Origin: Devosia ginsengisoli
Lineage (GTDB): Bacteria; Pseudomonadota; Alphaproteobacteria; Rhizobiales; Devosiaceae
DNA length: 64,000 nt
NCBI RefSeq assembly: GCF_024707105.1
Contig: NZ_JANQAJ010000011.1
Span: 195,488 to 259,487, forward strand
Direction: 5' to 3'
Part shown: piece after piece, positions 18,419 through 53,866 of the stretch
Layout of the letters: every line of letters starts with the position of its first letter
Numbering within the stretch: the stretch's first letter is position 1
Translations under genes and position numbers: made by a program
The notes under the pieces: model-generated
What the model saw: the letters and a program-made list of their open reading frames with translations, nothing else
Told to the model about the DNA's origin: nothing
Databases searched by the model: none

Positions 18419-18424
18419 TATGCT

Positions 18425-19460: not shown

Positions 19461-19518
19461 TGAGGTCTTTCATATCTGCACGATGCGTGAACCGGTAGTT
19501 CGCCAGAGTCTCAATAAA

Positions 19519-19536
19519 GAATACATTGGTATACCT
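19519..19536. promoter_or_regulatory. candidate operator GAATAC-attg-GTATAC-CT upstream of the MBL hydrolase gene
   Basis: Read directly. About 59 bp upstream of ATG 19460 (minus strand). Confidence 0.55.
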
Positions 19537-19703
19537 TGATGAGCAACGACACGTTGGACCTCGTCATCCGTGCGACGGGATATGGGTCTTGAGCCGCGAC
19601 AGGGCCGCGAGCGCCTTATTCTGTGTGGGCGCGCCGCCACATCTGGCGCAACTCCCCCGAAAAATGCTCGAACGAACTTGCCATGCTCGCGGCTTTGGTG
19701 CAT

Positions 19704-19722
19704 GAGTACGATGGTATACCAT
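19704..19722. promoter_or_regulatory. candidate operator GAGTAC-gatg-GTATAC-CAT; contains the perfect 12-bp palindrome ATGGTATACCAT
   Basis: Palindrome at 19711..19722 read directly. 20 bp upstream of ATG 19740. Confidence 0.65.
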
Positions 19723-19739
19723 TAATCCAGGATTTAGGG

Positions 19740-21254
19740 ATGAACGTTCAGGAATTGTCGTCGAAGCGTCCAGATGTGCTTGTTGTGGGAGCTGGCAACG
19801 CGGCCTTGTGCTCGGCAATTTCCGCTCATGAGCAGGGCGCCAACGTGCTGATCATCGAGGCAGCGCCGCTCGATGAACGGGGCGGCAATTCCTTCTTCAC
19901 CGGCGGCGCTTTCCGTTTCGCCTATGACGGCGTTGACGACCTGCGTGGTGTGTCGGCTGCGCTGGACGAGGAGAACCTGGAAAATATCGATTTCGGCACG
20001 TACACGACGGACCAGTATTTCGACGACATGTACGAGCTGACCCAGTACCGCACCGATCCCGAACTCTGCGAAGTCCTGGTGCGCAATAGCCTCGAGACGG
20101 CCAAATGGTTTGCCCGTCAGGGCGTGGAGCTTCGGCCTGGGCTGGGGCGCCAGGCCTTCAAGGTCGATGGCAAGTTCAAGTTCTGGGGCGGTCTCGCCTT
20201 GCACATTTCCGGCGGTGGTCCGGCGATGATGGAAGCCCTTTACAAGAATGCCGAGCGGCGTGGCATCGAGATCATCTACGATTGCCCCGCACAAAGCCTG
20301 ATCCAGGAAGGCGGTCGTGTCGTCGGCGTCGGTGCGCGGCTGCGCGGCGAGCCGGTGGATATTCGCGCCGGCGCGGTCGTGCTGGCTTGCGGCGGCTTTG
20401 AGTCCAACCCCGAAATGCGCGCCAACTATCTGGGCCAGGGCTGGGACATGGCCAAGGTTCGCGGCACAAGGTTCAATATGGGGCAGGGACTCAAGATGGC
20501 TCTTGCCATCGGCGCCAAGCCCCATGGCAACTGGTCGGGCTGTCACTCGGTGGCATGGGACGTCAATGCGCCGCCAACGGGCGACCTGACGGTCGGCGAC
20601 CAGTTCCAGAAGCACAACTATCCCTTCGGCATCATGGTCAACGCCAAGGGCGAGCGCTATGTGGACGAAGGCGCCAACTTCCACAGCCACACCTATGCCA
20701 AATATGGCGGCGAAATCCTAAAGCAGCCTGGCATGTTCGCCTGGCAAGTGTTTGATTCCAAAGTCTCACATTTGTTGCGTAGTGAGTACCGCATCCGGCG
20801 TGTGACCAAGGCGGAATCCGATACGCTGGAAGGACTCGCCGAGCAGTTGGAGGGCGTCAATCCCAAGCAGTTCCTGGAGACGGTGCGAGCCTTCAACGAC
20901 GCCTGTCGGTCGGATGTGCCATTCAATCCCAACATTCTCGACGGGCGCGGCACATCCGGCCTGCAGATCGACAAGACCAATTGGGCCAACGCGCTCGATA
21001 CACCGCCATACCACGCCTATCACGTGACCACCGGCGTTACCTTCACCTTCGGCGGCCTCAAGGTTACGCCGGAAGCCGAAGTCGAGGACTCCTATTCCGG
21101 CGTGGTCAAAGGGCTCTATGCCGCCGGCGAGATGGTGGGAGGCCTGTTCTTCCAGAACTATGCGAGTGGCACCGGCCTGATGTCGGGCGCCACCTTTGGT
21201 CGCCTGGCCGGCGCGGGCGCGGCACGCTTCGCCCAGCAAGCCAAGGCGGCCTGA
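19740..21254 (+). CDS. FAD-dependent dehydrogenase, tricarballylate dehydrogenase (TcuA)-like / fumarate reductase flavoprotein-like
   Basis: ORF 19623..21254; start moved to MNVQELSSKRPDVLVVGAGNAALCSA (ATG 19740). LACGGFESN. C-terminal GLYAAGEMVGG. No tcuB-like partner nearby. Confidence 0.8.
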   Translation: MNVQELSSKRPDVLVVGAGNAALCSAISAHEQGANVLIIEAAPLDERGGNSFFTGGAFRFAYDGVDDLRGVSAALDEENLENIDFGTYTTDQYFDDMYELTQYRTDPELCEVLVRNSLETAKWFARQGVELRPGLGRQAFKVDGKFKFWGGLALHISGGGPAMMEALYKNAERRGIEIIYDCPAQSLIQEGGRVVGVGARLRGEPVDIRAGAVVLACGGFESNPEMRANYLGQGWDMAKVRGTRFNMGQGLKMALAIGAKPHGNWSGCHSVAWDVNAPPTGDLTVGDQFQKHNYPFGIMVNAKGERYVDEGANFHSHTYAKYGGEILKQPGMFAWQVFDSKVSHLLRSEYRIRRVTKAESDTLEGLAEQLEGVNPKQFLETVRAFNDACRSDVPFNPNILDGRGTSGLQIDKTNWANALDTPPYHAYHVTTGVTFTFGGLKVTPEAEVEDSYSGVVKGLYAAGEMVGGLFFQNYASGTGLMSGATFGRLAGAGAARFAQQAKAA

Positions 21255-21284: not shown

Positions 21285-22679
21285 ATGGTGACGGCTCGAA
21301 CACAACAGGCGGCGAGTCTGCCGGCCTATACCGAGGCGCTGGCGGACTATGCGGTCAATCTAACCTTCGGGGACTTGCCGCCGCATGTTGTCGCGGCCGC
21401 GGGAAATTGCCTTGTGGATGCCGTTGCCTGCGCATGGTTCGGTAGCAGGTTCGAGTGGTCGCAAGCTGTGGTGAGCGCTGTTGAACGACCTGCTGGTGCG
21501 GTGACGGTACCGGGTATGGACATCACCACGGATGCGGCGACCGCGGCGCTTCTGTCGGGCGTTTTCGCTCATGCCTTCGAACTCGATTCCCTCCGTAAGC
21601 CTGGGGCCGGTGTTCATCCCGGAGCGACTGTTGCGCTGCCGGCGCTGGCAGTAGCCCAGTCGCTTGGGAGCAGCGGGCGGGAGTTGCTGGCCGCCATCGT
21701 CGCCGGTATCGAGGTGATGTTCCGCATCGGCGCGGCGACGCTTCACACGGCCGAGAAGCGGGGCTTTCATGCACCGGGCATCACGGGTGTCTTCGGTTCC
21801 GCAGTGGCCGCGGGCCGCCTTATGGGACTTTCATCACGGCAGATGGCCCATTGCCTTGGTATTGCCGCCTCGATGAGCGGCGGGTTGCTGCGCTTCGCCG
21901 CCTCCGGCGATGGCGGCATGGTCAAACGACTCCATCTGGGACGGGCCGCGCAGAACGGGGTCATTGCCGCCCGGCTCGCTGCCGCTGGCTATGAGGGGCC
22001 GAGCGCGGTGATCGAAGGCCCGGGTGGCGTGCTCGAAACCTTTTGCGAAACGTCACGCCCCGAACTGCTCGATGCCGGGTTGGGCAGCCGCTACGAGATC
22101 GAGACGCTGTGCATCAAGCGCTATGCCTGCCACGTCACTGCCCAGGCGCCCATCCAGATGCTGTCGGATTGGCGTGCATCCAGTGCATTCGGCCCCGCTG
22201 ACATCGCTGGAATTGAACTCGATGTGGCTCCCAAGCTTGCCAGCCATCACGCCGAGCGGCACCCGGCCGACATGGCGCTGGCGCAGTACAGCGTGCCGTT
22301 CATGCTCGCCTTCTCGGCCTACATCGACCTCGATGATCCCGGAAGCTTGACCGATGCCGCAATACGGGCGCCCAGGGTGCATGCACTGGCCGATCGCATC
22401 CGCATGACCGCTGATCCGGCGCTCAAGGGGTGGTCAACGCGCATGCGGGTGACGCTCACCGATGGTCGCGTGCTGGTGGGCGAGCCGGCCGGCTTCGTAG
22501 GTTGCCCGGAGAGCCCGCTCGATGCGGCTCAGTTGCGCCGACGCTTCCTGTCGCTGACCCGTGCCTTTCCGCAGTTGCAGATGCAGGCGTTGGCTGACGC
22601 GCTGGAAAATATCGCCACCTGCATAGACGTTTCGCAGCTGCCTCTGGGCTTGGTCGCCGCGGAGGGCCGCCAACCATGA
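21285..22679 (+). CDS. MmgE/PrpD-family protein, paralogue 3
   Basis: 464 aa. CLVDAVACAWFG, AFELDSL, GFHAPGITG, VKRLHLGRAAQNG. Confidence 0.85.
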   Translation: MVTARTQQAASLPAYTEALADYAVNLTFGDLPPHVVAAAGNCLVDAVACAWFGSRFEWSQAVVSAVERPAGAVTVPGMDITTDAATAALLSGVFAHAFELDSLRKPGAGVHPGATVALPALAVAQSLGSSGRELLAAIVAGIEVMFRIGAATLHTAEKRGFHAPGITGVFGSAVAAGRLMGLSSRQMAHCLGIAASMSGGLLRFAASGDGGMVKRLHLGRAAQNGVIAARLAAAGYEGPSAVIEGPGGVLETFCETSRPELLDAGLGSRYEIETLCIKRYACHVTAQAPIQMLSDWRASSAFGPADIAGIELDVAPKLASHHAERHPADMALAQYSVPFMLAFSAYIDLDDPGSLTDAAIRAPRVHALADRIRMTADPALKGWSTRMRVTLTDGRVLVGEPAGFVGCPESPLDAAQLRRRFLSLTRAFPQLQMQALADALENIATCIDVSQLPLGLVAAEGRQP

Positions 22680-25012
22680 CCGCCGTTGATGCTTATGTAG
22701 CCGACGATGCAGTCGATGCCGAAACGCTCCAGATGTTGCGGGACAGTGTCCGGCGTTTCAACGAGCAGGGCGGCCTCAGGCGCGTGCGCAACCTGCGGAA
22801 AACCCAACCCGGCTTTGACCGCGACGCGTGGCACGAAATGGCGCAGCAGGGCTGGCTGGGCACCATCATTCCGGAAGAGTCCGGTGGGCTCGGGCTGCCC
22901 TTTGCAGCGATGCAGGTCATCGTTGAAGAACTGGCGCGCGGCCTCAGCCCGGAGCCAGTCGTGGGTTGCGCCGTTCATGCGGCAACGGTGCTGCTGGGAT
23001 GTCGGGAGAGCGGCCGTGGCACGGAACTGCTGAGCCAGATCGCATCGGGCGATAAAATCTATGCGGTCGCGGAGTCCGATATCGCGATTACGCGTGATGG
23101 CAATGCGATGCTGCTTGGCGGCACTGCACGGCATATCCTGCCCGCACTGGCGACCGATGGGTTTATCGTTGCCGCTCGCGACGGCGCTAAGACCCTGGTG
23201 GTTTTCGTCGACGCTGCGGCGCCTGGCATATCGATCACACCCGAAAACCGTGCCGATGGCACCTTTTCGGGCACCATCACTTTCGTCGAGGTGCCGGTAT
23301 CGGCAGAAAGTGTGCTGGCTGAAGGCGCTGCAGCTTCGGCGGCGCTGGCCCGAGGGCGGGCAGCAGCAACGCTGATGACGGCCGCGGAGCTGTTCGGCGC
23401 GATGGATCAGGCCCTGTCCATCACCCTGGACTACATGAAAACACGCGTGCAGTTCGACAGGCCCATCGGCAGTTTCCAGGCCCTGCAGCACCGTGTGGTG
23501 GATCTCTATATCCAGAAGGAATTGAGCCGTTCCGTGCTCGCGGAAGCAATCGCCGCGCTCGATGAATCCGATGATCTCGAGCTGATCGAGATGGAAGCTT
23601 CCCGGGCCAAGGCTCGTTGCAGCTCGGCGGGACTGTTGATCGGCCGTGAAGCGATCAAGCTGCATGGCGCCATCGGCGTAACCGACGAATATGATGTCGG
23701 CCTCTATCTCAAGCGCCTGCTGTCGCTGGCTGCCCTTCATGGCAATGCACCGGCTCATCGCACCCGCTATGGCGCAGTGCTGGCGCGTCGCCAGGGCGGT
23801 TTGGATGAGGGGCGGGGCATGGTCGCGGCGGTGCCTGCCGAGTTCATGGCCGAGCAAAAGCTGGCCGTGGATTGGAACAGCTTTTCGAACGATGCTTTCC
23901 GGGCCGGCATCCGCGCCTATCTTGAGGCGTACTATCCGCAGCATCTCAGAGGGTTGGGCCGGCGCGGAACACCCGGCGAAATGGCGGATTGGCTCGACCG
24001 CATGGTGCGCAAGGGGTGGATAGCCCCTGCCTGGCCTGTCGAGCATGGTGGAATGGGCCTGTCGCCGGCCAAGCAGGTGATCTTTATCGAGGAGCGCGAG
24101 CGCGTCGGAGTCGCCCGAAATCCGGATCAGGGCGTGGTGATGTTCGGGCCTATGCTCATGCGCTACGGCACGGACGAGCAGAAGCGCCGCTTCCTGCCCA
24201 AGATTGTCACCAACGAGCACATCTGGTGCCAGGGCTATTCCGAACCCAATGCCGGCTCCGACCTCGCAAGTCTGCGTACGGAGGCGGTGCGGGATGGCGA
24301 AACCTTCATCATCAACGGGTCCAAGATCTGGACCACGATGGCGCACCACGCGACGCATATGTTCCTGCTGGCGCGCACCAACAAGGCCGTGAAGAAGCAG
24401 GAAGGCATCAGCTTCTTTGTGCTCGACCTGAAGACATCAGGCGTGACCATCCGCCCCATCGGCAACCTGGCAGGGCACGAAGAGTTCTGCGGGGTCTTCT
24501 TCGACGAAGTCCGCGTGCCTGCCGAAAACCTTGTTGGCGATCTCGACAAGGGATGGTCGGTCGCCAAATCACTGCTCGGCTTCGAGCGCCTCAACAATGG
24601 TAGCCCGCGGCGCGTGCAGGGTCCGCTCAAGCTGCTGCAGCAGGTTGCCGATGCCCGTTCGCTGGCCTTGGACCCGGTCTATCGGGAAAAATACACCGCG
24701 ATCTATCTGGATATCACCGACCTAAAATCAGCCTATTCGCGCTTCTCGGACATCGTGGGCAATGGTCTTATGCCAGGCCCGGAAATCTCGCAGCTCAAGA
24801 TATGGGCCGGCGAATGCGCTCAGAGGCTCTCGGAGCTGTTGATCGAGACGGCCGGTGAGGAGGGGGGAATCGTCGGCCGGCAGGCCTTCGGCAGCGCCGA
24901 TATCGATGTCCTTGCTCCGTTCTACGCAATGTTCCCGTCGCAGATCGCGTCGGGCTCAAACGACATCCAGCGCAACGTGCTGGCTCAGCGTGTGCTCGGA
25001 CTGCCGAAGTAG
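22676..25012 (+). CDS. tandem acyl-CoA dehydrogenase fusion (two ACAD-fold halves in one 778-aa polypeptide)
   Basis: The N-half (about aa 1-385) has ACAD architecture but no S-E-P-x-x-G-S-D flavin motif. The C-half (about aa 400-778) has [16 protein letters not shown] and GSKIWTT. ATGA overlap with the upstream PrpD gene. etfBA follow. Confidence 0.8.
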
Positions 25013-42606: not shown

Positions 42607-44298
42607 ATGTCTGGCGGGGTGCAGCATGTGATTGCAGGAGCGGTGGACGGGGCAGGGGAACAGCCAGTCTACGCGGCTCTGGCGGAGGCTTTTGTGGCGG
42701 AGGGCGTCGACCATCATTTCCTGTTGATGGGGCACGGTCAGATGCTTTGGGCCATTGCCATGGACAAACTGCCCGGCATGCGAAGCATCGATGCCCGGCA
42801 CGAACACTGCGCCGTCGCCGAGGCGATAGGCTACCATTTTGCCACAGGCAAGGTCGGCGTCGCTTCGGTGACCTGCGGCCCGGGCTTTACCCAGACGATG
42901 ACGGCGTTGACCTCGGCGGCGCAGGCCCGGGTTCCTCTGGTGATCCTGGCGGCCGACAGCCCGCTGAATCAGCGCTGGTATAACCAGTCTGTGGACCAGG
43001 CTGCACTGGCCAGGGCCACCGGCTCTCATTTCATCGCTGCCCACAGTCCCGCGCTGATGCGTGATTATGTGCAGGAGGCGTTCTACACGGCACACTTCGA
43101 GCGGCGACCGGTCGTGCTCAGCATTCCCTATGACCTGCTCAAGCTCTCCATCTCCACGCAGAAGCCTTACATTCCCTCGACCACCCTCCTGCCGCAGGTT
43201 GGCCCCATGCCGCCGAACCCCGCCGATATCGACCGGCTGGCGGAGCGGCTGAGGACGGCGCAGCGGCCGATTTTACTGGCGGGCAGGGGGGCTGTCCGGT
43301 CCGGGGCAGGGCCTGCTATCGAGGCGCTGGCCGATACCACCGGGGCCTTGTTGGCCACGAGTCTGCCGGCGCGGGGGCTGTTCGATCGCTCATCTTTCTC
43401 CGTCGGCGTGGCGGGCGGCTTTGCCAGCCAGGTTGCTGTCCAATGTTTCGCGGAAGCCGACATGGTCGTCGCCATCGGCGCCAGCCTGACTCATTACACG
43501 GTCGATGGTGGTGGGCTTTTCCCCAATGCCTTCACTGCCCAGATCGATGAAAACCCGCTCGGCATGCGCCATGGACGGCAGGCTGCAGACATCTATGTGC
43601 GGGGCGATGCCGCGCTGGCTGCGCAGGCCCTCATGGATCACCTGAAGGGGGGAACGGCTGCGCGATTCCGGAGCGATGAACTGGCCCGGCGCATCGTCGA
43701 AACACCACCCGATGCAACGCCTTACGAGGTCGAGCCGGGCTTGCTGGATCCTCGTGAAGTGGTCAAGGAAATCGACCGCGTCATACCCAAGGACTGGGAT
43801 ATCGTCAGCGGCACCGGACATTCTTCCTATTTCTACACCCATCTCCGCGACCGCCGACCCGAACAGTTCCATGTGCTGCGCGAATTCGGCGCCATCGGCA
43901 GCAGCCTGGCGATGGCGATCGGGGTGGCGGCAGTCCGCAATAACGGCAAGGTGCTGTTGCTCGATGGTGATGGCGGTCTGATGATGCATATCCAGGAACT
44001 CGAATCCATCCAGCGCCAGGGCATCAGGCTGGTCATATGTGCGCTCAATGACGGGGGCTTCGGCGCCGAAATCCACAAGCTGCGCAAGATCGGGGTGGAC
44101 GAAAAGATGGCCACATTCGGCCGGCCGGACTTTGCAGCCATTGGCAAAGGCTTCGGGCTGGATGTCGCGACTGTCGACGGGCCGGGCCAGATCGAGCGAG
44201 CCTTTGCGCAATATGACCCGGAAGGGCGATCCGCGATCTGGGACGTGCACATCTCGACACGTGTCTCGTCGCCGCGCGGACGCAAGCAGCCGAACTAG
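42607..44298 (+). CDS. thiamine-diphosphate-dependent enzyme, paralogue 2
   Basis: ORF 42553..44298; start moved to MSGGVQHV (ATG 42607, RBS GGAGGA). Shares GKVGVASVTCGPGFTQ and ARHEHCA with 3680..5353. TPP motif GDGG...NDGGFG. Confidence 0.8.
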   Translation: MSGGVQHVIAGAVDGAGEQPVYAALAEAFVAEGVDHHFLLMGHGQMLWAIAMDKLPGMRSIDARHEHCAVAEAIGYHFATGKVGVASVTCGPGFTQTMTALTSAAQARVPLVILAADSPLNQRWYNQSVDQAALARATGSHFIAAHSPALMRDYVQEAFYTAHFERRPVVLSIPYDLLKLSISTQKPYIPSTTLLPQVGPMPPNPADIDRLAERLRTAQRPILLAGRGAVRSGAGPAIEALADTTGALLATSLPARGLFDRSSFSVGVAGGFASQVAVQCFAEADMVVAIGASLTHYTVDGGGLFPNAFTAQIDENPLGMRHGRQAADIYVRGDAALAAQALMDHLKGGTAARFRSDELARRIVETPPDATPYEVEPGLLDPREVVKEIDRVIPKDWDIVSGTGHSSYFYTHLRDRRPEQFHVLREFGAIGSSLAMAIGVAAVRNNGKVLLLDGDGGLMMHIQELESIQRQGIRLVICALNDGGFGAEIHKLRKIGVDEKMATFGRPDFAAIGKGFGLDVATVDGPGQIERAFAQYDPEGRSAIWDVHISTRVSSPRGRKQPN

Positions 44299-44381
44299 GG
44301 GCCAGAGAGCTTTCCTTATTCAGTTCGCCAGAATCGTGTTCTGATAGACCTTAGCAGTTCGGGCATCCGCTGGAGGTCATT

Positions 44382-44807
44382 TTGGGAGCGCAACTGGCAC
44401 CGTACGCGATGAGCATAGTGGGCGTGCTGGCGCTTTGCCTGCTGTCGCTGGTTCTGGCGGTTTATTCGGGGCGCTCCAAGGGCGCGGCCGGGGCGCTGTC
44501 CGGACCGGTGCTCGACGCGCGCGATGACAACAAGCTCTATCGCATCGACCGGGTGCACATGAATTCCGTGGAGGCGTTGACGCCATTCGCCGTGTCGGTG
44601 GTGATCGCCATGCTGGTCGAGGTGACGCCGGCGCTGCTTGCGGGGCTGGTATGGCTGCATGTGGCGATTCGGCTTGCCCATCTCGTTATCTACCTGCGCG
44701 GCGGGGAAGCGGCAAAAGGGGGACATCTCAGAACCGTGCTTTACGTCTCGTCGGCACTCGTCACGATGGTGCTGATTATCGCTGCCGGATGGGCGGCGCT
44801 CACCTGA
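44382..44807 (+). CDS. small integral membrane protein, possibly MAPEG family
   Basis: 141 aa, TTG start with RBS GGAGG. Four hydrophobic segments. R..H.N..E motif region (RIDRVHMNSVEAL) resembles MAPEG proteins. Assignment tentative. Confidence 0.45.
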   Translation: MGAQLAPYAMSIVGVLALCLLSLVLAVYSGRSKGAAGALSGPVLDARDDNKLYRIDRVHMNSVEALTPFAVSVVIAMLVEVTPALLAGLVWLHVAIRLAHLVIYLRGGEAAKGGHLRTVLYVSSALVTMVLIIAAGWAALT

Positions 44808-44937
44808 ATGGCGCCTATCCGCAATTCGCATAACAAATATTATGGAACTAAAATTGATACGAAAAGCTGGGAATGCCTGGTGTTTTCCGCCTGTTTCGCG
44901 TTATCAGCGATGATCGCACCGACCTGAGGACGCCAGA

Positions 44938-45453
44938 ATGACCGCGCCGCTTTATATCATCACGGGAGCCATGGCTGCCGGCAAGTCGACCATTGCCAAG
45001 GCCTTGGTACAGTGTTTCGACAAGTCGGCGCATGTGGGCGGCGATGCTTTCCTGCGCATGATTGCCAAGGGTGGCGCCGTCATGGGTCCGGTGCTCGACA
45101 GCGAGGCCATCGCGCAGCTGCATTTGCGGCAGGATATCGCCATGGATGCGGTGCGGCGCTTTGTGGGCGCGGGATTTGCCACCGTGTACCAGGACATCCT
45201 GATCGGCGCGGATTTCGTTCGTGTCACCACGGCACTGGCCGATCTCACGCCGCGTATCGTCGTGCTCAATCCCAGTGTCGAAACCCTGGCCCAGCGCGAT
45301 GCCGACCGGCACAAGACCGGTTACGGCGAGCATTTCCCGCCCGATGTGCTCGCCGACGCGCTGCGCGCTGAAACGCCGCGCGAAGGTCTGTGGCTGGATA
45401 CGTCAGCGATGAGCGTCGATGGCGTGGCCGAGGCCATCCTCGAGCACTGGTAG
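44938..45453 (+). CDS. P-loop kinase/AAA-family ATPase (small-molecule kinase-like)
   Basis: 171 aa. Walker A ITGAMAAGKSTIAK. Size and layout resemble gluconate/chloramphenicol-phosphotransferase-type kinases. Confidence 0.6.
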   Translation: MTAPLYIITGAMAAGKSTIAKALVQCFDKSAHVGGDAFLRMIAKGGAVMGPVLDSEAIAQLHLRQDIAMDAVRRFVGAGFATVYQDILIGADFVRVTTALADLTPRIVVLNPSVETLAQRDADRHKTGYGEHFPPDVLADALRAETPREGLWLDTSAMSVDGVAEAILEHW

Positions 45454-46359
45454 CGCTTCGGCGACGGCCAGATCGGCCATGGCGAGCGCGGCTTCGCGGG
45501 TTTTGGCGGCGGCTACGAAGCGACCATTGTGGCAGAAGCTGGCGCCGATAACGCCGGACACGGCCTCCAGCTCGCCATTGGTCAGGCCGGCCCAGGCCGC
45601 CGGCAGATCGGCGCGTACAGCGAAACCGTCATCGCCGCGGCGGATGGTGGTGAGGCACCAGTCCCTTTCACGCGGGTGAACGACGAAGAGCAGATGGTCG
45701 GCGCCCGCTTTCACGATGGCCGGGCGGAACGGCATGCCCATGGGAAGTTCGAGCACACGCGCCTGCCCGGTTTTCTCGATGGCCTGTCGCACTACGGTTT
45801 CGGCGCGCAGCTTGGCGGCGGCACGGGCAATCGCGGCTTCGACAAAGGTCCGCGCGACGGCCAATGCGCTGTGAAATGCAGCCATCTCGGCATCGGGATC
45901 GGTATTGTCGAAGTCCGGCTTCAGCGTTTCGAGCAGCGATGGCAGCGTCAGGCTGGCCAGCGGACCCGAGGGGCTGAGTGCGCCATTGTCCGTCAAGTCG
46001 ACAGGCAGGACGAAGCTGGCGTCGAAAGATGCGTGAATGGCGTCGACATGGGCTTCAGGCACGGCGGCCGCGGCCAGGTAGGCGCGACCATAATGCTTCC
46101 AGATCAGGCCGAACGAGCTGTAGGGTTGACCATCGTCGCGTAGAGGCGCGCCGCGCTGGTGATGGTCGAAAATGCGCTTTTCGCCATCATAGGCGCCGCC
46201 GACATCATAGATGATGCGATCCGCACCGGGCGTGATCCAGTCAGGCGCCCTGCTCCGCTTGATCCGGGCTTGCGGAAAAAGCCGGGTCAGGACAACGCTG
46301 GAGAGCAATTCATCGGCATGAAAACCACCGGAATGGGTGACGAGAAAGTCGGGAATCAT
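45403..46359 (-). CDS. MYG1-family (UPF0160) metal-dependent hydrolase
   Basis: 318 aa. THSGGFHADELLS, FDHHQRG, SSFGLIWKHYG are typical of MYG1. Confidence 0.85.
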   Translation of the reverse strand: MIPDFLVTHSGGFHADELLSSVVLTRLFPQARIKRSRAPDWITPGADRIIYDVGGAYDGEKRIFDHHQRGAPLRDDGQPYSSFGLIWKHYGRAYLAAAAVPEAHVDAIHASFDASFVLPVDLTDNGALSPSGPLASLTLPSLLETLKPDFDNTDPDAEMAAFHSALAVARTFVEAAIARAAAKLRAETVVRQAIEKTGQARVLELPMGMPFRPAIVKAGADHLLFVVHPRERDWCLTTIRRGDDGFAVRADLPAAWAGLTNGELEAVSGVIGASFCHNGRFVAAAKTREAALAMADLAVAEALPVLEDGLGHAIDAHR

Positions 46360-46472
46360 GCCGTTATATGCCTTGTTGGTTTGCGGAGCCGGCTGGGCGG
46401 TGGCAACAGATAGACATTGCCGGCCGGCAGCTCAACCGCATTCGGGCCAAATGCACGAATCCAATGGACAAT

Positions 46473-46490
46473 TTTGACCATTTGGTCAAA
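46473..46490. promoter_or_regulatory. palindromic operator candidate TTTGACC-attt-GGTCAAA upstream of fgd
   Basis: Read directly. 33 bp upstream of ATG 46523. A near-identical copy lies at 51169..51186. Confidence 0.55.
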
Positions 46491-46522
46491 GTATTGGGGC
46501 CGGCGAGCATTGGAGGACAGGC

Positions 46523-47539
46523 ATGCGCTTCGGTTACAAGGCTTCTGCGGAACAGTTCGCCCCCAATACGCTGCTGCGCTTCGCCATCGAGGCGGAGCAG
46601 GCCGGCTTTGAATCGGTCTTCATCAGCGACCATTTCCAGCCGTGGAAGCATACCGATGGCCATGCACCCTTCGCGCCATCCTGGATCGCGGCGGCGCTGG
46701 CACGCACGGAAAATATCGTCGTCGGTACCTCGGTGCTGACGCCGACATTCCGGCTGCATCCATCGGTCGTCGCGCATGCTTTCGGTACTCTGGGCACCAT
46801 GTTTCCCGAGCGCGTCATCCTGGGCGTGGGCACCGGGGAATCGCTCAACGAAGTGCCTTCCACGGGCATGGTCTGGCCCGAACTCAAGGAGCGTTCGGCG
46901 CGGCTGCGGGAGGCGGTGGCGCTGATCCGCCGGTTGTGGAGCGAGGATCGCGTGACCTTTGAGGGCGAATTCTACAAGACACAGAATGCGACCATCTATG
47001 ACAAGCCGGACAAGATGGTGCCGATCTATCTCGCGGCGGGTGGGCCGCTCAACGCAAAATATGCCGGCCGGGCCGGTGATGGCTTCATCTGCACTTCGGG
47101 CAAGGGGGCGGAGCTCTATGTCGATCAGCTGCTGCCCAATGTGGCGCTTGGCCGGGCCCAATCCGATAGGGGCGCCCTGCCCTTCGAACGCATGATCGAG
47201 GTCAAGGTATCGTTCGATCCCGATCCGGCGCTGGCGCTGAACAATACGCGGGCCTGGGCGGCCCTGTCGCTGACGCCGGAGGAAAAGCATTCGGTGCAGG
47301 ATCCGGCCGAAATGGAGCGGCTGGCCGACGCACTGCCAATCGAGCGGGTTGCCAAGCGCTGGATCGTCTCCAGCGATCCCGATGAGCATGTGGCTGCGAT
47401 CAAGACCTATATGGATTACGGCTTCGACCACCTGGTGTTCCATGCGCCAGCCGAAGACCAGAGCCGGTTCATCAGCCTCTATGCCAAGGAAATCCTGCCG
47501 CGATTGCGGGCGCTTGCGCCGGCAGCAACGGCCAGCTAG
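46523..47539 (+). CDS. fgd: LLM-class F420-dependent glucose-6-phosphate dehydrogenase-like oxidoreductase
   Basis: 338 aa. GYKASAEQF, SDHFQPW, GTSVLTPTFR, GVGTGESLNE, YAGRAGDGFICTSGKG, KRWIVSSDPDE and LVFHAP match my recollection of the FGD1 family. Confidence 0.8.
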   Translation: MRFGYKASAEQFAPNTLLRFAIEAEQAGFESVFISDHFQPWKHTDGHAPFAPSWIAAALARTENIVVGTSVLTPTFRLHPSVVAHAFGTLGTMFPERVILGVGTGESLNEVPSTGMVWPELKERSARLREAVALIRRLWSEDRVTFEGEFYKTQNATIYDKPDKMVPIYLAAGGPLNAKYAGRAGDGFICTSGKGAELYVDQLLPNVALGRAQSDRGALPFERMIEVKVSFDPDPALALNNTRAWAALSLTPEEKHSVQDPAEMERLADALPIERVAKRWIVSSDPDEHVAAIKTYMDYGFDHLVFHAPAEDQSRFISLYAKEILPRLRALAPAATAS

Positions 47540-47578
47540 GTCCCCACCCATGCCAATGCCACGATATACAGTCTGGGG

Positions 47579-48379
47579 GTGACGGGCGTGCCGGAGATCG
47601 GGCCGGGCGACGATCTCGTGGCGCTGATTGCGGCGGCTATCGAGGCATCGCTGGCAGAAGACCCGGAAGCAGCTCTGAGGGACGGCGATATCCTTGTCGT
47701 CACCAGCAAGATTGTCTCCAAGGCCGAGGGCATGCAGGTGCCGGCCAGCGAGCGCGAACAAGCTATTTCCGCCGATACGGTGCGTGTCGTGGCCGAGCGG
47801 GTGCATCCCGGCGGGGTGACCCGCATCGTCGAGACGCGGCATGGGCTGATCATGGCCGCCGCCGGTATCGATACGTCCAATGTGCCGGACGGGCTGGCCC
47901 TGCGGCTGCCGGAAGACCCCGACCGGTCGGCCCGGGCGCTGTGCGAAGGCCTGCGCGAACGGTTCGGGGTGTCGCTGGGCGTCATCGTCACCGATACGCT
48001 GGGCCGGCCCTGGCGCGTCGGGCAGACCGATGTCGCCATTGGCGCGGCCGGCATGATCGTTACTGATGACCTGCGGGGCGGCGTCGACGCCAATGGCCGC
48101 CCGCTCAATGTCACCATCACCGTGCTGGCCGACGAATTGGCGGGCGCGGCCGATCTCGTCAAGGGCAAGGCCAGCGGCATTCCCGTTGCCGTAGTGCGCG
48201 GGCTGGGACGGCTGGTAACCGCGCTCGATGCGCCAGGTGCCCGTTCGCTGGTTCGCGGGGTGGACGATGATATGTTCCGCTTCGGCTCGGCGGAAGCCTA
48301 TCGGCTGGGCTATGAGGCTGCGCAGGCCGAATTGCGCGACCGGGATGACCAAGCCAGCGAATGCGTCAAACAGGATTGA
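47579..48379 (+). CDS. cofE: coenzyme F420-0:L-glutamate ligase (short CofE type, no FbiB nitroreductase domain)
   Basis: 266 aa, GTG start. [78 protein letters not shown]. Confidence 0.82.
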
Positions 48380-48384
48380 CCCTC

Positions 48385-49326
48385 ATGCGACCCCTGCCCT
48401 TGTCCCTTGCTGTGCTCGCGCTGTCCGTCGGCCATGCGTTCGGCCAGACGGATTATCCCCTGACAATAGACAATTGCGGTTTTGCCGTAACCCTGCCGGC
48501 GGCGCCGCAGCGCGTGGTGACGATCAAGTCGACGGCCACCGAAATGCTGCTGGCGTTGGGGCTGGGCGAACGGATCGTCGGGGTCGGCTTCCAGGATGGT
48601 CCGGCCTCGGAACCATGGGCGGCGACCGCTGCGGCTCTGCCGGTATTGTCGGACAAGCTGCCATCGCAGGAAGTCGTGCTCGAGGCGGAGCCGGACCTGG
48701 TCTATGGCGGTTGGGAAAGCAATTTTTCTGCCGATGGTGCGGGGGAGCGCCCTACCCTGGCTGCGCTGGGCGTGGCTGGCTATGTATCGCCGGCCGCCTG
48801 CCGTTCGATCAAACCGGCCAAGCTGACCTTCGACGACATCTTCGCCGAGATCGACGAAATGGGCATGATCTTCGATGTCGCGCCGGCGGCCGACGCCCTG
48901 ATTGCCGAGCAGCAGGCGGCGCTGGCCGCCATTGCGCCGGATACGCGCGGGCTTTCGGCGCTCTGGTATTCTTCGGGCACCAAGACGCCTTATGTCGGCG
49001 CCGGCAGTGGCGCTCCGCAGATGATGCTGGAGGCTCTGGGGCTGGAGAACATCATGGCCGCTGTCGATGACGGCTGGGTTTCTGCGAGCTGGGAGGCCGT
49101 CGTCGATGCCAATCCCGATGTCATCGTGCTGGTCGATGCGGTGTGGAATTCGGCCGAGCAAAAAAAGCAGTTGCTGGCCGAGAACCCGATCACCAGCCAA
49201 CTGGATGCGGTGATCCATCAGCGTTACCTCGTGGTGCCCTTTCCGGCTTCGGAAGCCGGGATACGCAATGTGGGCGCAACAGCCGACATGGCCGCCCAGC
49301 TTGCCGGCCTCAGTTTCTCGCCGTGA
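48385..49326 (+). CDS. ABC transporter periplasmic binding protein, FecB/BtuF (siderophore/heme/B12) class; candidate F420-0 binding protein
   Basis: ORF 48361..49326; probable start MRPLPLSLAVLALSVGHAFGQ (ATG 48385, RBS AGGA, 6 nt after the cofE stop). PQRVVTIKSTATEMLLALGLGERIVGV is typical of the class. Confidence 0.75.
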   Translation: MRPLPLSLAVLALSVGHAFGQTDYPLTIDNCGFAVTLPAAPQRVVTIKSTATEMLLALGLGERIVGVGFQDGPASEPWAATAAALPVLSDKLPSQEVVLEAEPDLVYGGWESNFSADGAGERPTLAALGVAGYVSPAACRSIKPAKLTFDDIFAEIDEMGMIFDVAPAADALIAEQQAALAAIAPDTRGLSALWYSSGTKTPYVGAGSGAPQMMLEALGLENIMAAVDDGWVSASWEAVVDANPDVIVLVDAVWNSAEQKKQLLAENPITSQLDAVIHQRYLVVPFPASEAGIRNVGATADMAAQLAGLSFSP

Positions 49327-50336
49327 ACCGACCGGCGCTCGCCACGCTGATACTGAGCCTGCTGGCGCTGCTGCTGGCCAGCCTCGTGCTGGCGGTAACC
49401 TTCGGGCCCGCCGATATCGCTCCATCAGAAGTGTGGCAGACCATTGGCTGGCATTTCGGCCTGCTGCCGGAAAGCCCGGTGGGCAGGCTGCGCGATGCCA
49501 TCATCTGGGAATTGCGCCTGCCGCGCGTGCTGGCCGCTGCGGCGGTCGGTGCTGGCCTGGCGCTGTGCGGCGCGGTCATGCAGGCGCTGACCCGCAATCC
49601 GTTGGCTGACCCCTATCTGCTCGGCTTATCGTCCGGCGCGTCGCTCGGCGCCGTCGCCTTCCTGCTTGCCGGCGCGAGCCTGCTGATGCCGCTGGGCGCC
49701 TTTCTTGGTGCCGGCGCCGCCATGGCCCTGACGCTGCTGGTTATCCAACTACTGGGCGGAGCCACGCCGACACGGGCCATTCTGGCCGGTATCTCGATAT
49801 CGGCGCTGGCGGCGGCCGCGACGTCGTTCCTCATCTTCTGGTCGGCGACCGGCGATTCCTACCGGGAAATCCTGAGCTGGCTCATGGGCTCGCTGAGCGG
49901 TGTCGTCTGGTCCGAGGCACTATTGGTGCTCGCCGCATTGGTGCTGGCAGGCCTGCCGGTGCTGCTGTCCGGCCGCTCGCTCGATGCCTTTGCCTTCGGC
50001 GACACCGCGGCAGCAACGCTCGGTGTCGATGTGGTCAGGCTCCGCTGGTGGCTGCTGGGCGGCACGGCGCTGCTGACCGGGGTGCTGGTCTCCATCGGCG
50101 GGGCGATCGGCTTTGTCGGACTCATCGTGCCGCATGTGGCGCGGCTGGTGACCGGTTCGCGGCATCGCGTGCTGCTGCCGGTGGCCATGCTGCTGGGCGC
50201 CAGCTTCATGATCTGGACCGATACGGCGGCGCGTAGCTTGTTCGAACCGCGTGAACTGCCGGTCGGCATCATCACCGCCCTGCTCGGCGCGCCGATCTTC
50301 CTTCTTGTGCTGCTGCGCTACAGGCGCATCACATGA
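49323..50336 (+). CDS. ABC transporter permease, FecCD/BtuC family
   Basis: ORF 49143..50336; start GTG 49323 (GTGA overlap with the binding-protein stop). RLPRVLAAAAVGAGLALCGAVMQALTRNPLADPYLLG. Confidence 0.88.
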   Translation: MNRPALATLILSLLALLLASLVLAVTFGPADIAPSEVWQTIGWHFGLLPESPVGRLRDAIIWELRLPRVLAAAAVGAGLALCGAVMQALTRNPLADPYLLGLSSGASLGAVAFLLAGASLLMPLGAFLGAGAAMALTLLVIQLLGGATPTRAILAGISISALAAAATSFLIFWSATGDSYREILSWLMGSLSGVVWSEALLVLAALVLAGLPVLLSGRSLDAFAFGDTAAATLGVDVVRLRWWLLGGTALLTGVLVSIGGAIGFVGLIVPHVARLVTGSRHRVLLPVAMLLGASFMIWTDTAARSLFEPRELPVGIITALLGAPIFLLVLLRYRRIT

Positions 50337-51115
50337 GCGCGGGGCTGGTGGTCAGCGGGGTCGCTGTGGAACTGGGCGGCCAGGCGATTGTCGCCGGGGT
50401 CGACATGGTCGCGCCCGTGGGTCAGGTGACCGGACTGATTGGCCCCAATGGCGCTGGGAAATCCACGTTGCTGCGGGCCATTCTCGGTCTTGTTCCGGCC
50501 ATGGGCTCAGTGAGCTTTGATGGAACAGACCTCACCGTCCTGCCCCGCCGCACGCGGGCGCAGTTCACGGCCTTTGTCGAGCAGAGCAGCGACACCGATG
50601 CGCGGCTGACGGCGCGTGAAGTGGTGTTGCTGGGTCGCATTCCCTTCCAGTCCATCTGGCAGGCTGCCCCCTCCCCCGAGGATCACGCGCAGACCGATGC
50701 GGCGCTGGCCGCGGTGGAAATGACTGATTTTGCCGATCGGCTCTACCAGACGCTGTCGGGTGGCGAACAACAGCGCGTCCAGATTGCCCGCGCGCTGGCG
50801 CAACAGCCCCGGCTGCTGCTGCTGGATGAACCCACGAGTCATCTCGATGTGCATGCGCAACTGGCCATGCTCGACCTGTTGCGCCGCAGCGCGCGCGCCG
50901 GCGCGGCCGTGCTGGTGGCGCTGCACGATCTCAATCTCGCTGCCGGCTTCTGCGACTCGCTGGTCGTGCTGCAGGGAGGCCGGTTGGCGGCGGCCGGAGC
51001 GCCGGGTGACGTGCTGACCCCTGCCCTGCTGCGGCAGGTCTATGGGGTCGATGCCACCATATTGCGCCATCCCGGTGATGGCCGCCCGCTGATCGCCTAT
51101 GACCTGCCCGGCTAA
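50333..51115 (+). CDS. ABC transporter ATP-binding protein (FecE/BtuD-like)
   Basis: 260 aa. Walker [10 protein letters not shown], signature LSGGEQQRV, Walker [17 protein letters not shown] overlap. Confidence 0.92.
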
Positions 51116-51168
51116 ATCCTCGTCACCATGCGATTGCGATTGACAATCACGCGCCGTCCACTCAAAAA

Positions 51169-51186
51169 TTTGATCGACTGGTCAAA
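51169..51186. promoter_or_regulatory. palindromic operator candidate TTTGATC-gact-GGTCAAA upstream of the second LLM gene
   Basis: Read directly. 30 bp upstream of ATG 51216. Outer arms AAATTTGA / TCAAATTT are perfect. Confidence 0.55.
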
Positions 51187-51215
51187 TTTCGGACCTGCGG
51201 CATAGGGAGGCGCGC

Positions 51216-52217
51216 ATGGAATTCGGCATCACCTTCAAGGGCTTCATCGAGGCCGAACGGGCACGCTATCTGGTGCGTGCCGCTGAATATGCCGGGTTCA
51301 GCTATTGCTGGTTCTATGACAGCCATATTCTCTGGCGCGATTGCTATGCCGCCATCGCCATGTGCATGGAACACACTTCCCATATGCGCTTTGGCCCGCT
51401 GGTGACCAATCCGGATGTGCGCGACTGGTCGGTTGCCGCCTCGATCTTCGGCTCGCTCTCCAAGCAGAGCGGTGGCCGCTTCGACCTGGCGGTCGGCCGG
51501 GGCGACAGCTCCATGCGCGTCATGGGCAAGAAGCCGGCGACGCTGGCGCGGGTGGCCGAGTTCATCGCGAAGACCCAGGCCATGGTGCGTGGCGAAGAAG
51601 TCTCCTATGGCGAAATCCCCGCCGCGGTGAAATTCCCTTGGGCTGTGGGCCACGAAATGCCGAGCTGGATTGCGGCCTATGGCCCGCTGGCGCTCAAGAC
51701 CGCGGGCGAACATGCCGATGGCGTGGTGCTGCAACTGGCCGATCCGGGGCTCTGCAAGTGGTTTACCGACCAGTGCATCGACGCGGGCAAGGCCGCCGGC
51801 AAGGACATGTCCAAATTCCGCTCCATGGCTGCGGCGCCCGCCTATTTCGGCGACAAGGCGCGGGCCATCGAGGCCACCAAGTGGTTCCCGGCCATGGTGG
51901 GCAACCACGTGGCCGATATCGTCGAGAAATATGGCGCCGACAGCGACCAGATCCCCAAGAGCCTGACCAGCTATATCGAGAAGCGCCGCGGCTACGACTA
52001 TTCCAAGCACGGCCAGTCGGATAACCCGTTCCTCGACTTCATCACGCCCGACGTGGTGGAGAATTTCTGCGTGCTGGGCGAGCCGGAAGACCACATCGCC
52101 AAGATGCATGCGCTCGAGGATGCGGGCGTGACGCAGTTCAACATCTATCTGGACAGCGGCGACGAGGAAGAGATCATCGCCAACTATGGGCGGCACGTGA
52201 TCCCGGCATTTCGATAG
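51216..52217 (+). CDS. LLM-class (luciferase-like) oxidoreductase, Mer-like, probably F420-dependent
   Basis: 333 aa TIM-barrel LLM (MEFGITFKG..., FGPLVTNP, DLAVGRGDS, AAYGPLALKTAGEHADGVVLQ). The F420 assignment rests on family resemblance and context. Confidence 0.65.
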   Translation: MEFGITFKGFIEAERARYLVRAAEYAGFSYCWFYDSHILWRDCYAAIAMCMEHTSHMRFGPLVTNPDVRDWSVAASIFGSLSKQSGGRFDLAVGRGDSSMRVMGKKPATLARVAEFIAKTQAMVRGEEVSYGEIPAAVKFPWAVGHEMPSWIAAYGPLALKTAGEHADGVVLQLADPGLCKWFTDQCIDAGKAAGKDMSKFRSMAAAPAYFGDKARAIEATKWFPAMVGNHVADIVEKYGADSDQIPKSLTSYIEKRRGYDYSKHGQSDNPFLDFITPDVVENFCVLGEPEDHIAKMHALEDAGVTQFNIYLDSGDEEEIIANYGRHVIPAFR

Positions 52218-52246
52218 GCGGCAACCAAGCCCGGTGTGGGGCTGCC

Positions 52247-53083
52247 CTACCGGTTGAGTATCCGCCCTGATAGCACGTCGATCTGCATGCCGTCGAAGGC
52301 CGGGGTGACGTTGTCGGGCGTCTCCGATTCGGTCCTGCTATAGTCAAGATCGATATGCATGTTGGTCAGAACGGCCCGTGTTGGGGCCATCCGGGCGATC
52401 CATTCCAGGGTTTCGGGCAGGCTCAGATGGCTCGGATGCGGCGTGGGGCGCAGAGCGTCGACCACCCATAGGTCGAGACCGGAAATTGCCGGCAGCGATG
52501 CCTCGGGAAAGCCTGATAGATCGCAGGAATAGGCGAAATTGGCGACGCGGAAACCCAGCGAGGTGATGTTGCCATGGGTCTGCTCGAAGGCCGTGATGGT
52601 GATCGTGCCACCCGGCCCGTCGATATCAAGCACGTCTCCCGCGGCGATGTCGTGCGCGTTGAGGATGGGCGGATAGTCGCTGCCCGGCGGGGAAACGAAG
52701 CAATAGCCGAAGGCTTCGCGCAGGCGGGCGCCGGTTTCGGTGTCGAAATAGACATCGACCCGGCGGCGATTGTGTAGTGCCAGTACACGCAGGTCGTCGA
52801 TGCCATGCGTATGATCGGCATGGGCGTGGGTGTAGAGCACGGCCTCGACGCGATCGACCTTGGCGGCCAGCATCTGCTCGCGCAGGTCGCAGCCGGTATC
52901 GATCACCACGCGGGTCGGGATGTCGCTGCCCTCGCTAAACCCTTCCAGCAAAAGGGAACATCTGAGGCGCCGGTTGCGCGGCTCATTGGGGTCGCAGTCG
53001 CCCCAGACATTGCCGATGCGCGGCACGCCGCCGGACGACCCGCAGCCCAGGATGGTGGCTGTTATCCTCTGGGCAGACGGCAT
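52247..53083 (-). CDS. MBL-fold metallo-hydrolase (PhnP/GPMH-like, conserved partner of tatD-metG)
   Basis: 278 aa. ILGCGSSGGVPR, YTHAHADHTHGIDDLR. Confidence 0.85.
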   Translation of the reverse strand: MPSAQRITATILGCGSSGGVPRIGNVWGDCDPNEPRNRRLRCSLLLEGFSEGSDIPTRVVIDTGCDLREQMLAAKVDRVEAVLYTHAHADHTHGIDDLRVLALHNRRRVDVYFDTETGARLREAFGYCFVSPPGSDYPPILNAHDIAAGDVLDIDGPGGTITITAFEQTHGNITSLGFRVANFAYSCDLSGFPEASLPAISGLDLWVVDALRPTPHPSHLSLPETLEWIARMAPTRAVLTNMHIDLDYSRTESETPDNVTPAFDGMQIDVLSGRILNR

Positions 53084-53086
53084 GGA

Positions 53087-53866
53087 TCAGGCCAGCCCGG
53101 TTTTCGAGAACAGGCGGGCGAAATTGGCGGTGGTCTCGCTTCCGAGCTGTTCGAGACTTATCCCCCGCACTTCGGCGACTTTTTCGGCGGTGTGGCGGAC
53201 GAAACTCGGTTCGTTGGATTCGCCGCGATGCGGGATTGGGGCGAGATAAGGTGCATCGGTTTCAACGAGATAGCGTTCGGCCGGCACGAATTTGGCGACC
53301 TCGCGGATCTCTTCGGCATTCCTGAAGGTGATGATGCCGGAAAAGGAGATATACCCGCCCAGGTCGAGTGCCGTACGGGCCAGGTCGGGGCCGGCGGTGA
53401 AGCAATGCAGCAGGAAGGGGAAGGCCCCCTGCCCGGCTTCTTCCCTCAGGATCGCGGCCATGTCGTCGTCGCATTTGCGGCTGTGGATAACCAGTGGAAG
53501 ACCGGTGATCCGGGCGGCGGCGATGTGACGGCGCAGGCCGGTGGCCTGGGCCTCGCGCGGGGCGTTGTCGTAGAAGTAGTCGAGGCCGGCTTCGCCGATA
53601 GCAACGCAACGGGGATGGGCACTTAGCCGGACAAGATCATCCGTTTGTATATGCAATTCCTCATCGGCGTGATGTGGATGGGTGCCGACCGAGCACCAGA
53701 CGTTCGCAAAACGTTCCGCCAGTGCCGTGTATGTGGAAAACTTCTCCACATGTGTGGAAATCGTCACCATGCCGGTGACACCGGCGGCTTCGGCGCGGGC
53801 CATGACGCCTTCGATGTCATTGGCCAGGGCCTCGAAATCGAGGTGGCAATGGCTGTCGATCAGCAT
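53087..53866 (-). CDS. tatD: TatD-family metal-dependent hydrolase (DNase)
   Basis: 259 aa. MLIDSHCHLD, AIGEAGLDY, LVIHSR, ETDAPYL. Confidence 0.9.
   Translation of the reverse strand: MLIDSHCHLDFEALANDIEGVMARAEAAGVTGMVTISTHVEKFSTYTALAERFANVWCSVGTHPHHADEELHIQTDDLVRLSAHPRCVAIGEAGLDYFYDNAPREAQATGLRRHIAAARITGLPLVIHSRKCDDDMAAILREEAGQGAFPFLLHCFTAGPDLARTALDLGGYISFSGIITFRNAEEIREVAKFVPAERYLVETDAPYLAPIPHRGESNEPSFVRHTAEKVAEVRGISLEQLGSETTANFARLFSKTGLA

Follow-up and report, generated by a model that had tools for sequence, protein, structure and literature searches.

A candidate F420 acquisition module in Devosia ginsengisoli joins a putative deazaflavin importer of actinobacterial type to an alphaproteobacterial oxidoreductase

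Can a bacterium acquire the deazaflavin cofactor F420 from its surroundings and finish it in the cell? The question is raised by a six-gene cassette at positions 46523-52217 of a 64-kb stretch of DNA from the soil alphaproteobacterium Devosia ginsengisoli (Hyphomicrobiales, Devosiaceae; NZ_JANQAJ010000011.1), the whole of which is called the window below. In this cassette a three-gene ATP-binding cassette (ABC) transporter is flanked by genes for a glucose-6-phosphate dehydrogenase that depends on F420 (FGD), for the F420-0:L-glutamate ligase CofE and for a second oxidoreductase of the luciferase-like monooxygenase (LLM) type. A preliminary description, made from the letters of the window, had proposed a salvage system. 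We consider it probable that the locus is a chromosomal "acquire, finish, recharge, use" F420 module, common across the genus Devosia, in which a deazaflavin would be imported, tailed by CofE, reduced by FGD and used by the LLM. The six genes are as follows.

46523..47539, + strand: fgd, FGD; TIGR03554 492.1 bits (cut-off 420)
47579..48379, + strand: cofE, F420-0:L-glutamate ligase, short form, 266 amino acids (aa), GTG start; TIGR01916 219.1 bits (cut-off 180.65)
48385..49326, + strand: periplasmic substrate-binding protein, 313 aa, Sec signal peptide, no lipobox Cys; TIGR03868 436.9 bits (cut-off 392.4)
49323..50336, + strand: FecCD/BtuC-type permease, 337 aa, GTG start; TIGR03869 442.6 bits (cut-off 437.35), PF01032
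50333..51115, + strand: ABC ATPase, 260 aa, ATGA overlap with the permease stop; TIGR03873 343.3 bits, PF00005
51216..52217, + strand: TIGR03842-family Mer-like LLM oxidoreductase, 333 aa; TIGR03842 485.9 bits (cut-off 295.45)

Five of the six genes score above curated family cut-offs, which supports the salvage reading. The preliminary description had placed six genes on the + strand, and a check of the window recovered all six open reading frames (ORFs) as listed. The GTGA and ATGA overlaps between the ABC genes are real (4 nt each); the gap between cofE and the binding-protein gene, first given as 6 nt, is in fact 5 nt. The longest ORFs extend the binding protein and the permease too far 5', and the starts at 48385 (ATG) and 49323 (GTG) are backed by the signal peptide, by profile alignments and by gene calls in D. 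beringensis.

The first step of the proposed module is uptake, in which a type II (BtuCD-F-like) ABC importer would take preformed deazaflavin from the periplasm. Family scores bear out the identification of the three genes as a BtuF/FecB-class binding protein, a FecCD permease and an ATPase. The permease clears its cut-off by a narrow margin, with the BtuC model next at 233.5 bits, and the ATPase is still matched best by TIGR03873, 88 bits ahead of the next model, that of a heme ATPase (255.1 bits). All three transporter models (TIGR03868, TIGR03869 and TIGR03873) are of the type "hypoth_equivalog", in which the function of the family is itself curated as a hypothesis. The cassette is thus a known, curated prediction and is not new to the databases: the Devosia genes are already so named in GenBank, and the NCBI name of the 100% identical D. 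ginsengisoli protein, which also confirms the alphaproteobacterial host deduced earlier, is "putative F420-0 ABC transporter substrate-binding protein".

The closest structure to the binding protein is Protein Data Bank entry 4MLZ, a structural-genomics entry from Jonesia denitrificans, which is matched with 303 bits at about 60% identity. Jonesia is presumably the founding organism of the TIGR03868 proposal in TIGRFAMs. The AlphaFold model of the Devosia protein (predicted local distance difference test score, pLDDT, 92.1) superposes on 4MLZ with a template modelling (TM) score of 0.89-0.94 and a root mean square deviation of 1.5 Å. Further structural neighbours are an uncharacterised Veillonella protein and then binders of Fe-hydroxamate, heme and siderophores (TM 0.6-0.8). 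The modelled fold is that of a class III binding protein, and it does not reveal the ligand. Alignment of the N-termini shows a lipobox-like Cys in those Micrococcales proteins whose N-terminus is complete and a cleavable Sec signal without such a Cys in Devosia, and the plain Sec signal fits a periplasmic location. Cys31 and Cys139 are invariant across the binding-protein family, which suggests that a disulfide between them is possible. Four metagenomic relatives of 616-679 aa (P0123, P0124, P0125 and P0130) contain two tandem binding-protein domains at 34-40% identity.

The same data bear on a simpler explanation, that this is an ordinary iron-chelate, heme or cobalamin importer sited by chance among F420 genes. 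Apart from 4MLZ, the structural neighbours whose ligand is assigned bind heme or siderophores, homologues are named "iron complex transport system" by the Joint Genome Institute (JGI), and Pfam returns generic families alone for the six proteins (Bac_luciferase and F420_ligase, with Peripla_BP_2, FecCD and ABC_tran for the transporter). However, the best siderophore, heme and B12 models reach 127-255 bits, versus 343-443 bits for the F420-0 models. The ABC genes lie 5 nt from cofE, linkage with cofE, fgd or cofD recurs in two phyla and has been kept through cross-phylum transfer, and the cassette is situated between two copies of a candidate operator, one of them with the LLM that is predicted to depend on F420. 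Known type II importers (BtuCD-F, HmuTUV/BhuTUV, FhuBCD/FepBCD) do resemble the Devosia transporter in their class III fold, FecCD permease and translationally coupled genes. In contrast to them, the Devosia transporter is partnered by F420 enzymes and not by iron or B12 genes, and no gene for a TonB-dependent outer-membrane receptor is present in the cassette. We regard a chance placement of this kind as very improbable.

Following uptake, CofE would add gamma-glutamates, and the cofactor would thereby be matured and trapped in the cell. The best model for the Devosia CofE is the FbiB-type NF009810, of which only profile positions 18-272 of 449 are covered. With PF01996 as the sole Pfam domain in its 266 aa, the protein lacks the FbiB nitroreductase domain, as had been described; it most resembles the N-terminal part of mycobacterial FbiB and differs from it in the missing C-terminal domain. 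In FbiB, that C-terminal nitroreductase domain reduces dehydro-F420-0. Because it is absent here, the short CofE would, from what is established about the bacterial pathway, expect an already saturated F420-0. The motifs AAGIDTSNV and VTDTLGR align with the metal and nucleotide motifs (GIDxSN, TDTxGR) of Archaeoglobus fulgidus CofE.

The finished cofactor would then be reduced by FGD at the expense of glucose-6-phosphate. The Devosia protein matches the solved FGD1 enzymes of Rhodococcus (5LXE, 470 bits) and Mycobacterium tuberculosis (3B4Y, 466 bits) at about 65% identity. Its alignment to 5LXE keeps the motifs SDHFQPW, GTGE(S/A)LNE, CTSGKG, PE(E/Q)KHS and AKRWIV, which we take to contain the catalytic His, Trp and Glu and the phosphate-binding Lys, Lys and Arg of the FGD1 literature. 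The likeness to mycobacterial FGD1 thus extends to intact catalytic motifs.

The TIGR03842 LLM, finally, would spend the F420H2. It had been described as Mer-like, which agrees with a match of 104 bits to methylene-tetrahydromethanopterin reductases, and from its family it is presumed to be the user of the cofactor. An LLM with 68-71% identity to it is encoded by the last gene of a cofG-cofH-cofD-cofC-cofE-npdG-LLM operon on plasmids of Paracoccus alcaliphilus (p402633) and Leisingera. The Devosia locus shares with this Rhodobacterales operon the terminal LLM, a short CofE and an F420-reducing dehydrogenase. It differs in that cofG, cofH, cofD and cofC are absent and an ABC importer is present instead, in that its CofE is of actinobacterial type (~40% identical to the Rhodobacterales one), and in that the reductant enzyme is FGD and not Fno. 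Since the LLM is shared, the import genes occupy the place that cofG/H/D/C have in the operon of the Rhodobacterales.

In a scan of GTDB with one genome per species, at least 563 loci were found to encode relatives, so that the cassette is by no means confined to a few Actinobacteria, as the preliminary description had it. The best 80 loci were fetched with ±10 kb of sequence and are cited here by L-numbers, which are labels of these loci; they comprise 36 from Devosia and other Hyphomicrobiales (63-88% identity) and 44 from Micrococcales (59-66%). By tblastn, fgd, cofE and the ABC genes follow one another in this order in each Devosia-type locus of sufficient length, and the LLM is their neighbour; it has been relocated upstream in five species and is divergent in one. 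cofE is always directly upstream of the binding-protein gene in the Devosia-type loci (n = 36), and it lies within the locus in 25 of the 44 from Micrococcales. Grouped as they are in all 36 Devosia/Hyphomicrobiales loci, the six genes are not together by chance. With 182 representatives at E<1e-30 (50% clustering), the family of the binding protein is a small one. Among the 120 best homologues listed (77-92% identity), most are metagenome sequences and the named ones are all from Devosia; the closest relatives outside the genus are from Micrococcales, namely Isoptericola (62% identity), Microbacteriaceae and Promicromonosporaceae.

This distribution raises the question of origin, which was addressed by comparing mean identities between the two phyla with those within the Micrococcales. 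The values are 59.9% vs 64.8% for the binding protein, 62.0% vs 71.2% for the permease, 59.8% vs 66.5% for CofE, 61.3% vs 81.9% for FGD and 49.7% vs 57.4% for the ATPase, which at 50% is the most divergent component. In the case of four of these, binding protein, permease, ATPase and CofE, the cross-phylum identities are far too high for vertical descent across phyla. CofE, moreover, is 63% identical to that of Parafrigoribacterium (Microbacteriaceae) and ~40% identical to those of Paracoccus and other Rhodobacterales. The pattern supports an origin of FGD, CofE and the three ABC genes in Micrococcales-like Actinobacteria. The LLM, in contrast, is 68-71% identical to Rhodobacterales LLMs and only 40-45% identical to Micrococcales relatives. 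The horizontal transfer first suspected for the whole cassette is accordingly supported for five genes and fails for the LLM, which is alphaproteobacterial. Judged by these similarities, the Devosia module is a chimera of an actinobacterial supply line (importer, CofE and FGD) and a native alphaproteobacterial F420 client.

Midpoint-rooted neighbour-joining trees from a truncated Micrococcales sample recover Devosia as monophyletic for four of five proteins, the binding protein being the exception. The direction of transfer rests on the distribution (hundreds of Micrococcales species and essentially one proteobacterial lineage) and not on a rooted tree. The GC content of the cassette is unremarkable, and a Rfam scan of 44000-53500 found no riboswitch or other family; the lack of an Rfam element and of a compositional anomaly at the cassette is consistent with an old acquisition. 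Together, host-like composition and conserved synteny point to an old, domesticated and genus-wide acquisition rather than a recent island. A megablast search of the cassette against plasmids matched only the LLM (73%, a Paracoccus plasmid). No plasmid-borne protein of the true TIGR03868 class was found, all plasmid matches being below 40% identity, and so no mobile vehicle was identified among them. Compared with the proposed F420-0 transporter of Micrococcales, the Devosia system has the same three-gene cassette and the same linkage with cofE and fgd, and its binding protein is close to 4MLZ (~60% identity, 1.5 Å). It differs in its Gram-negative host, in a Sec signal in place of a lipoprotein anchor, in the partnership with an alphaproteobacterial TIGR03842 LLM, in a conserved operator of its own and in an ATPase below the family cut-off.

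Two copies of a 16-bp palindrome are present at the cassette:

46474..46489, no strand assigned: palindrome TTGACCATTTGGTCAA, candidate operator, 49 nt upstream of the fgd ATG
51170..51185, no strand assigned: second palindrome copy TTGATCGACTGGTCAA, 46 nt upstream of the LLM ATG

No further match to TTGACC-N4-GGTCAA (at most one mismatch) occurs in the 64 kb, where 0.06 are expected. The consensus TTGAYC-N4-GRTCAA precedes fgd and the LLM in nearly all Devosia-type loci (L001, L003-L036, L038 and L045) and is absent from the Micrococcales loci fetched. Among the 35 Devosia-type loci that have a true fgd, 29 carry it 38-62 nt upstream of this gene, and a single copy between divergent LLM and fgd genes is seen in one further locus. 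Upstream of the TIGR03842 LLM the spacing is 36-50 nt in Devosia loci, including those with the LLM ahead of fgd, which have one copy only, before the LLM. The presence of the palindrome at both genes ties the LLM functionally to the cassette. The motif points to one regulator that would control two transcription units, fgd-cofE-ABC and LLM, through a common candidate operator. No regulator gene is present inside the module or close to the palindromes, and a scan for sigma-70 promoters and terminators gave a result no better than chance.

FNR/FixK boxes have the form TTGA-N6-TCAA. The palindrome, with TTGA-N8-TCAA, was rejected as such a box. A palindrome-like site at ~19.7 kb in L019, L031 and L036 was discarded as an operator since it lies inside a cytosine deaminase gene. 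Variants of the arrangement were seen in several loci. In D. sediminis (L015), an extra palindrome at 5347 stands ahead of the gene for a 759-aa protein in which an LLM is fused to an FAD_binding_4 domain (5471-7750); this gene is inserted between a nucleoside hydrolase gene and fgd. In L029, from a Devosia metagenome-assembled genome, the palindrome at 8009 precedes a TIGR03557-type LLM (8134-9090; 281 bits; 33% identity to FGD) that replaces fgd, and the F420 reductant may differ there. Fno-like genes (~29-31% identity to Paracoccus Fno) lie near the LLM in L024, L025 and L027, which have the LLM upstream of fgd. The one in L024 (~6166-6800, - strand) points away from the LLM, with the palindrome between the two, and matched no NCBIfam family at E≤1e-20.

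Under the salvage reading, Devosia would be auxotrophic for F420, and the genes for its synthesis would be missing. Neither tblastn with the Paracoccus F420 operon nor family scans of most other large ORFs found cofC, cofD, cofG or cofH in the window, in agreement with the preliminary description, and the tblastn search revealed no fno-like gene in the 64 kb. None of the 80 loci has an Fo synthase gene (cofG, cofH or fbiC) within ±10 kb, and the 36 Devosia loci have no cofC or cofD in that range either. Genes elsewhere might nevertheless make F420 de novo, in which case the cassette would only recapture or supplement deazaflavin; other Hyphomicrobiales (Sinorhizobium, Mesorhizobium, Labrys and Chelatococcus) do carry cofD. 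This is quite improbable in our view. The sole cofE seen is of actinobacterial type and joined to the transporter, and the LLM that normally ends a cofGHDCE operon is attached to an import cassette. In addition, the 120 best matches listed for S. meliloti CofD (≥62% identity) include no Devosia protein, although this is weak evidence. No cofD was found on Devosia plasmids.

What would the importer carry? Its substrate is most likely F420-0 or a short-tailed F420, and binding of Fo is also possible. F420-0 or short-tailed F420 is favoured because CofE, alone of the biosynthetic enzymes, is tied to the transporter throughout the Devosia loci, and because the short CofE lacks the domain that processes dehydro-F420-0. 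A third reason is that a molecule of ~515 Da could cross the outer membrane without a TonB-dependent receptor; these last two points draw on established knowledge and inference.

Several observations weigh against this reading of the module. Of the three transporter proteins, the binding protein and the permease clear the cut-offs of the TIGRFAMs F420-0 families, and the ATPase falls below that of TIGR03873 (343.3 vs 372.4 bits). The fold of the binding protein is common to heme, siderophore and B12 binding proteins, and no report of transport by any member of the family was found in a literature search. Release by producers is known for Fo and not for F420-0. A CofD homologue is encoded near the same transporter family in 14 of the 44 Micrococcales loci (L047, L048, L049, L054, L056, L057, L060, L064, L065, L072, L076, L078, L079 and L080), where annotated directly after the ATPase. 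The ligand may thus be Fo, which CofE alone could not use, and the label "F420-0" may be too narrow.

The cofD-linked loci are the core of a competing explanation, in which the importer takes up Fo, cofC and cofD elsewhere in the genome make F420-0 from it, and CofE extends the product. TIGR01819 confirmed the CofD assignment in L048 (12773-13744) and L065 (12764-13771). The cassettes concerned are of the TIGR03868 class (451-471 bits). The binding protein of Naasia scores 470.6 bits and the CofD right after the ATPase 313.2 bits (TIGR01819, cut-off 257.45); in Cellulomonas cellasea, the values are 466.1 and 343.3 bits, with CofD again directly after the ATPase; and in Luethyella, a binding protein of 451.6 bits is accompanied by a CofD homologue (37% identity, tblastn) that follows the ATPase. 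A CofC homologue lies beside cofD in L047, L072 and L080. In the permease tree, the sister clade of Devosia holds both cofD-linked and cofE-only cassettes, interspersed with each other, which suggests that the same transporter type serves both contexts. The lack of Fo synthase near all 80 loci and the release of Fo by producers also fit uptake of Fo. However, the absence of cofC and cofD around the 36 Devosia cassettes and from the window argues against it. Jonesia and other founding genomes of the TIGRFAMs proposal are, moreover, not known to carry any cofD. Fo is also generally held to be membrane-permeant, so that a high-affinity importer would be less needed. We consider Fo salvage unlikely for Devosia. 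It may be the deazaflavin head that the binding protein recognises, the tail being tolerated and Fo accepted as well as F420-0 and its tailed forms; alternatively, the cofD-linked genomes may be full producers.

For the F420-0 module that we favour, the neighbourhoods of the LLM provide a hint at pyrimidines as the substrate of its last step. In all eight Micrococcales loci with a TIGR03842-like LLM (L065, 2817-6179; L056, L057, L063, L064, L071, L074 and L078), the LLM ends a same-strand triad with a carbon-nitrogen (CN) hydrolase and a dihydropyrimidinase, a few kb from the transporter. The CN-hydrolase is beta-ureidopropionase-like, and the dihydropyrimidinase scores 392.8 bits against TIGR02033 (part of the protein scanned). 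These two enzymes correspond to steps 3 and 2 of the reductive breakdown of pyrimidines, and the LLM takes the position of the reductase. In a Devosia subclade, a gene for an inosine-uridine nucleoside hydrolase is divergent from fgd, with the LLM-FAD fusion between them in L015 (hydrolase at 4353-5303); in loci in which hydrolase gene and fgd adjoin, the palindrome is found in the intergenic region between them. A cytosine deaminase gene (369 bits to E. coli CodA) is found 3' of the LLM in the subclade, as is a Bmp/PnrA nucleoside ABC transporter in some species. These pyrimidine neighbours are seen in L016, L017, L019 and L036 (~7000-8030 and 13900-19950), and L031 (14251-20240) has the Bmp/PnrA transporter and cytosine deaminase only. 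Nucleoside hydrolase, cytosine deaminase and nucleoside transporter converge on uracil. None of these neighbours is present in the D. ginsengisoli window, and a literature search found no paper connecting F420 with pyrimidine catabolism. That the LLM is an F420H2-dependent pyrimidine reductase is our guess from gene context.

A bolder version of the module combines these leads. Devosia would be an F420 "pirate" without ring synthesis of its own, which obtains F420-0 or Fo from actinobacterial or archaeal neighbours through the Micrococcales importer. A deazaflavin-responsive regulator would act on TTGAYC-N4-GRTCAA, and F420H2-dependent reduction of uracil and thymine by the TIGR03842 LLM would replace dihydropyrimidine dehydrogenase. 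We offer this full scenario as speculation that is unlikely as a whole.

The surroundings of the cassette are conserved on one side. The right flank is a run of - strand housekeeping genes (metallo-beta-lactamase (MBL) hydrolase, TatD, MetG, HolB, Tmk and DacC), and D. beringensis and about nine other species share this junction. The left flank differs between species. The window begins with ntrX, hflX and mazG, and in D. beringensis ntrY-ntrX-hfq-hflX-mazG lies only ~2 kb from fgd. Between mazG and fgd the window has ~43 kb (~3600-46360) that are absent from D. beringensis and carry genes of acyl-coenzyme A (CoA) and organic-acid catabolism: two thiamine pyrophosphate enzymes, CoA-transferases, acyl-CoA dehydrogenases, electron transfer flavoprotein, two MmgE/PrpD proteins, a phosphoenolpyruvate mutase/isocitrate lyase-like protein, TctA/TctC, a major facilitator superfamily transporter and LysR and GntR regulators. 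This region is a variable catabolic stretch beside a conserved junction. Within it, the 778-aa product of the ORF at 22676-25012 starts its series of acyl-CoA dehydrogenase domains with the C-terminal one (233-363), followed by the N-terminal (406-514) and the middle one (518-612), and the ORF may represent two dehydrogenase genes read as one frame or a real fusion.

The literature treats F420 as made by each user for itself. A 2021 review of the F420 field makes no mention of uptake or salvage, a literature search for F420 uptake, salvage, auxotrophy and transporters found nothing relevant, and for Devosia together with F420 only mycotoxin reviews turned up. What is new here, beyond the curated family, is the chimeric cross-phylum build, the likeness in layout to the biosynthesis operon of the Rhodobacterales, the candidate operator, the variants with a linked cofD and the pyrimidine lead. 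The chimeric build, the conserved operator and the pyrimidine-catabolism neighbourhood of the client LLM provide new experimental handles, and with Devosia as a culturable Gram-negative host and 4MLZ as the structure of a homologue, a database prediction of many years' standing becomes directly testable. An importer of this type could help to engineer F420-dependent biocatalysis in hosts that are unable to make F420. If the cassette does import deazaflavin, gene surveys that treat F420 use and F420 biosynthesis as one would undercount the users, and F420 would join B12, heme and queuosine precursors as a cross-fed cofactor.

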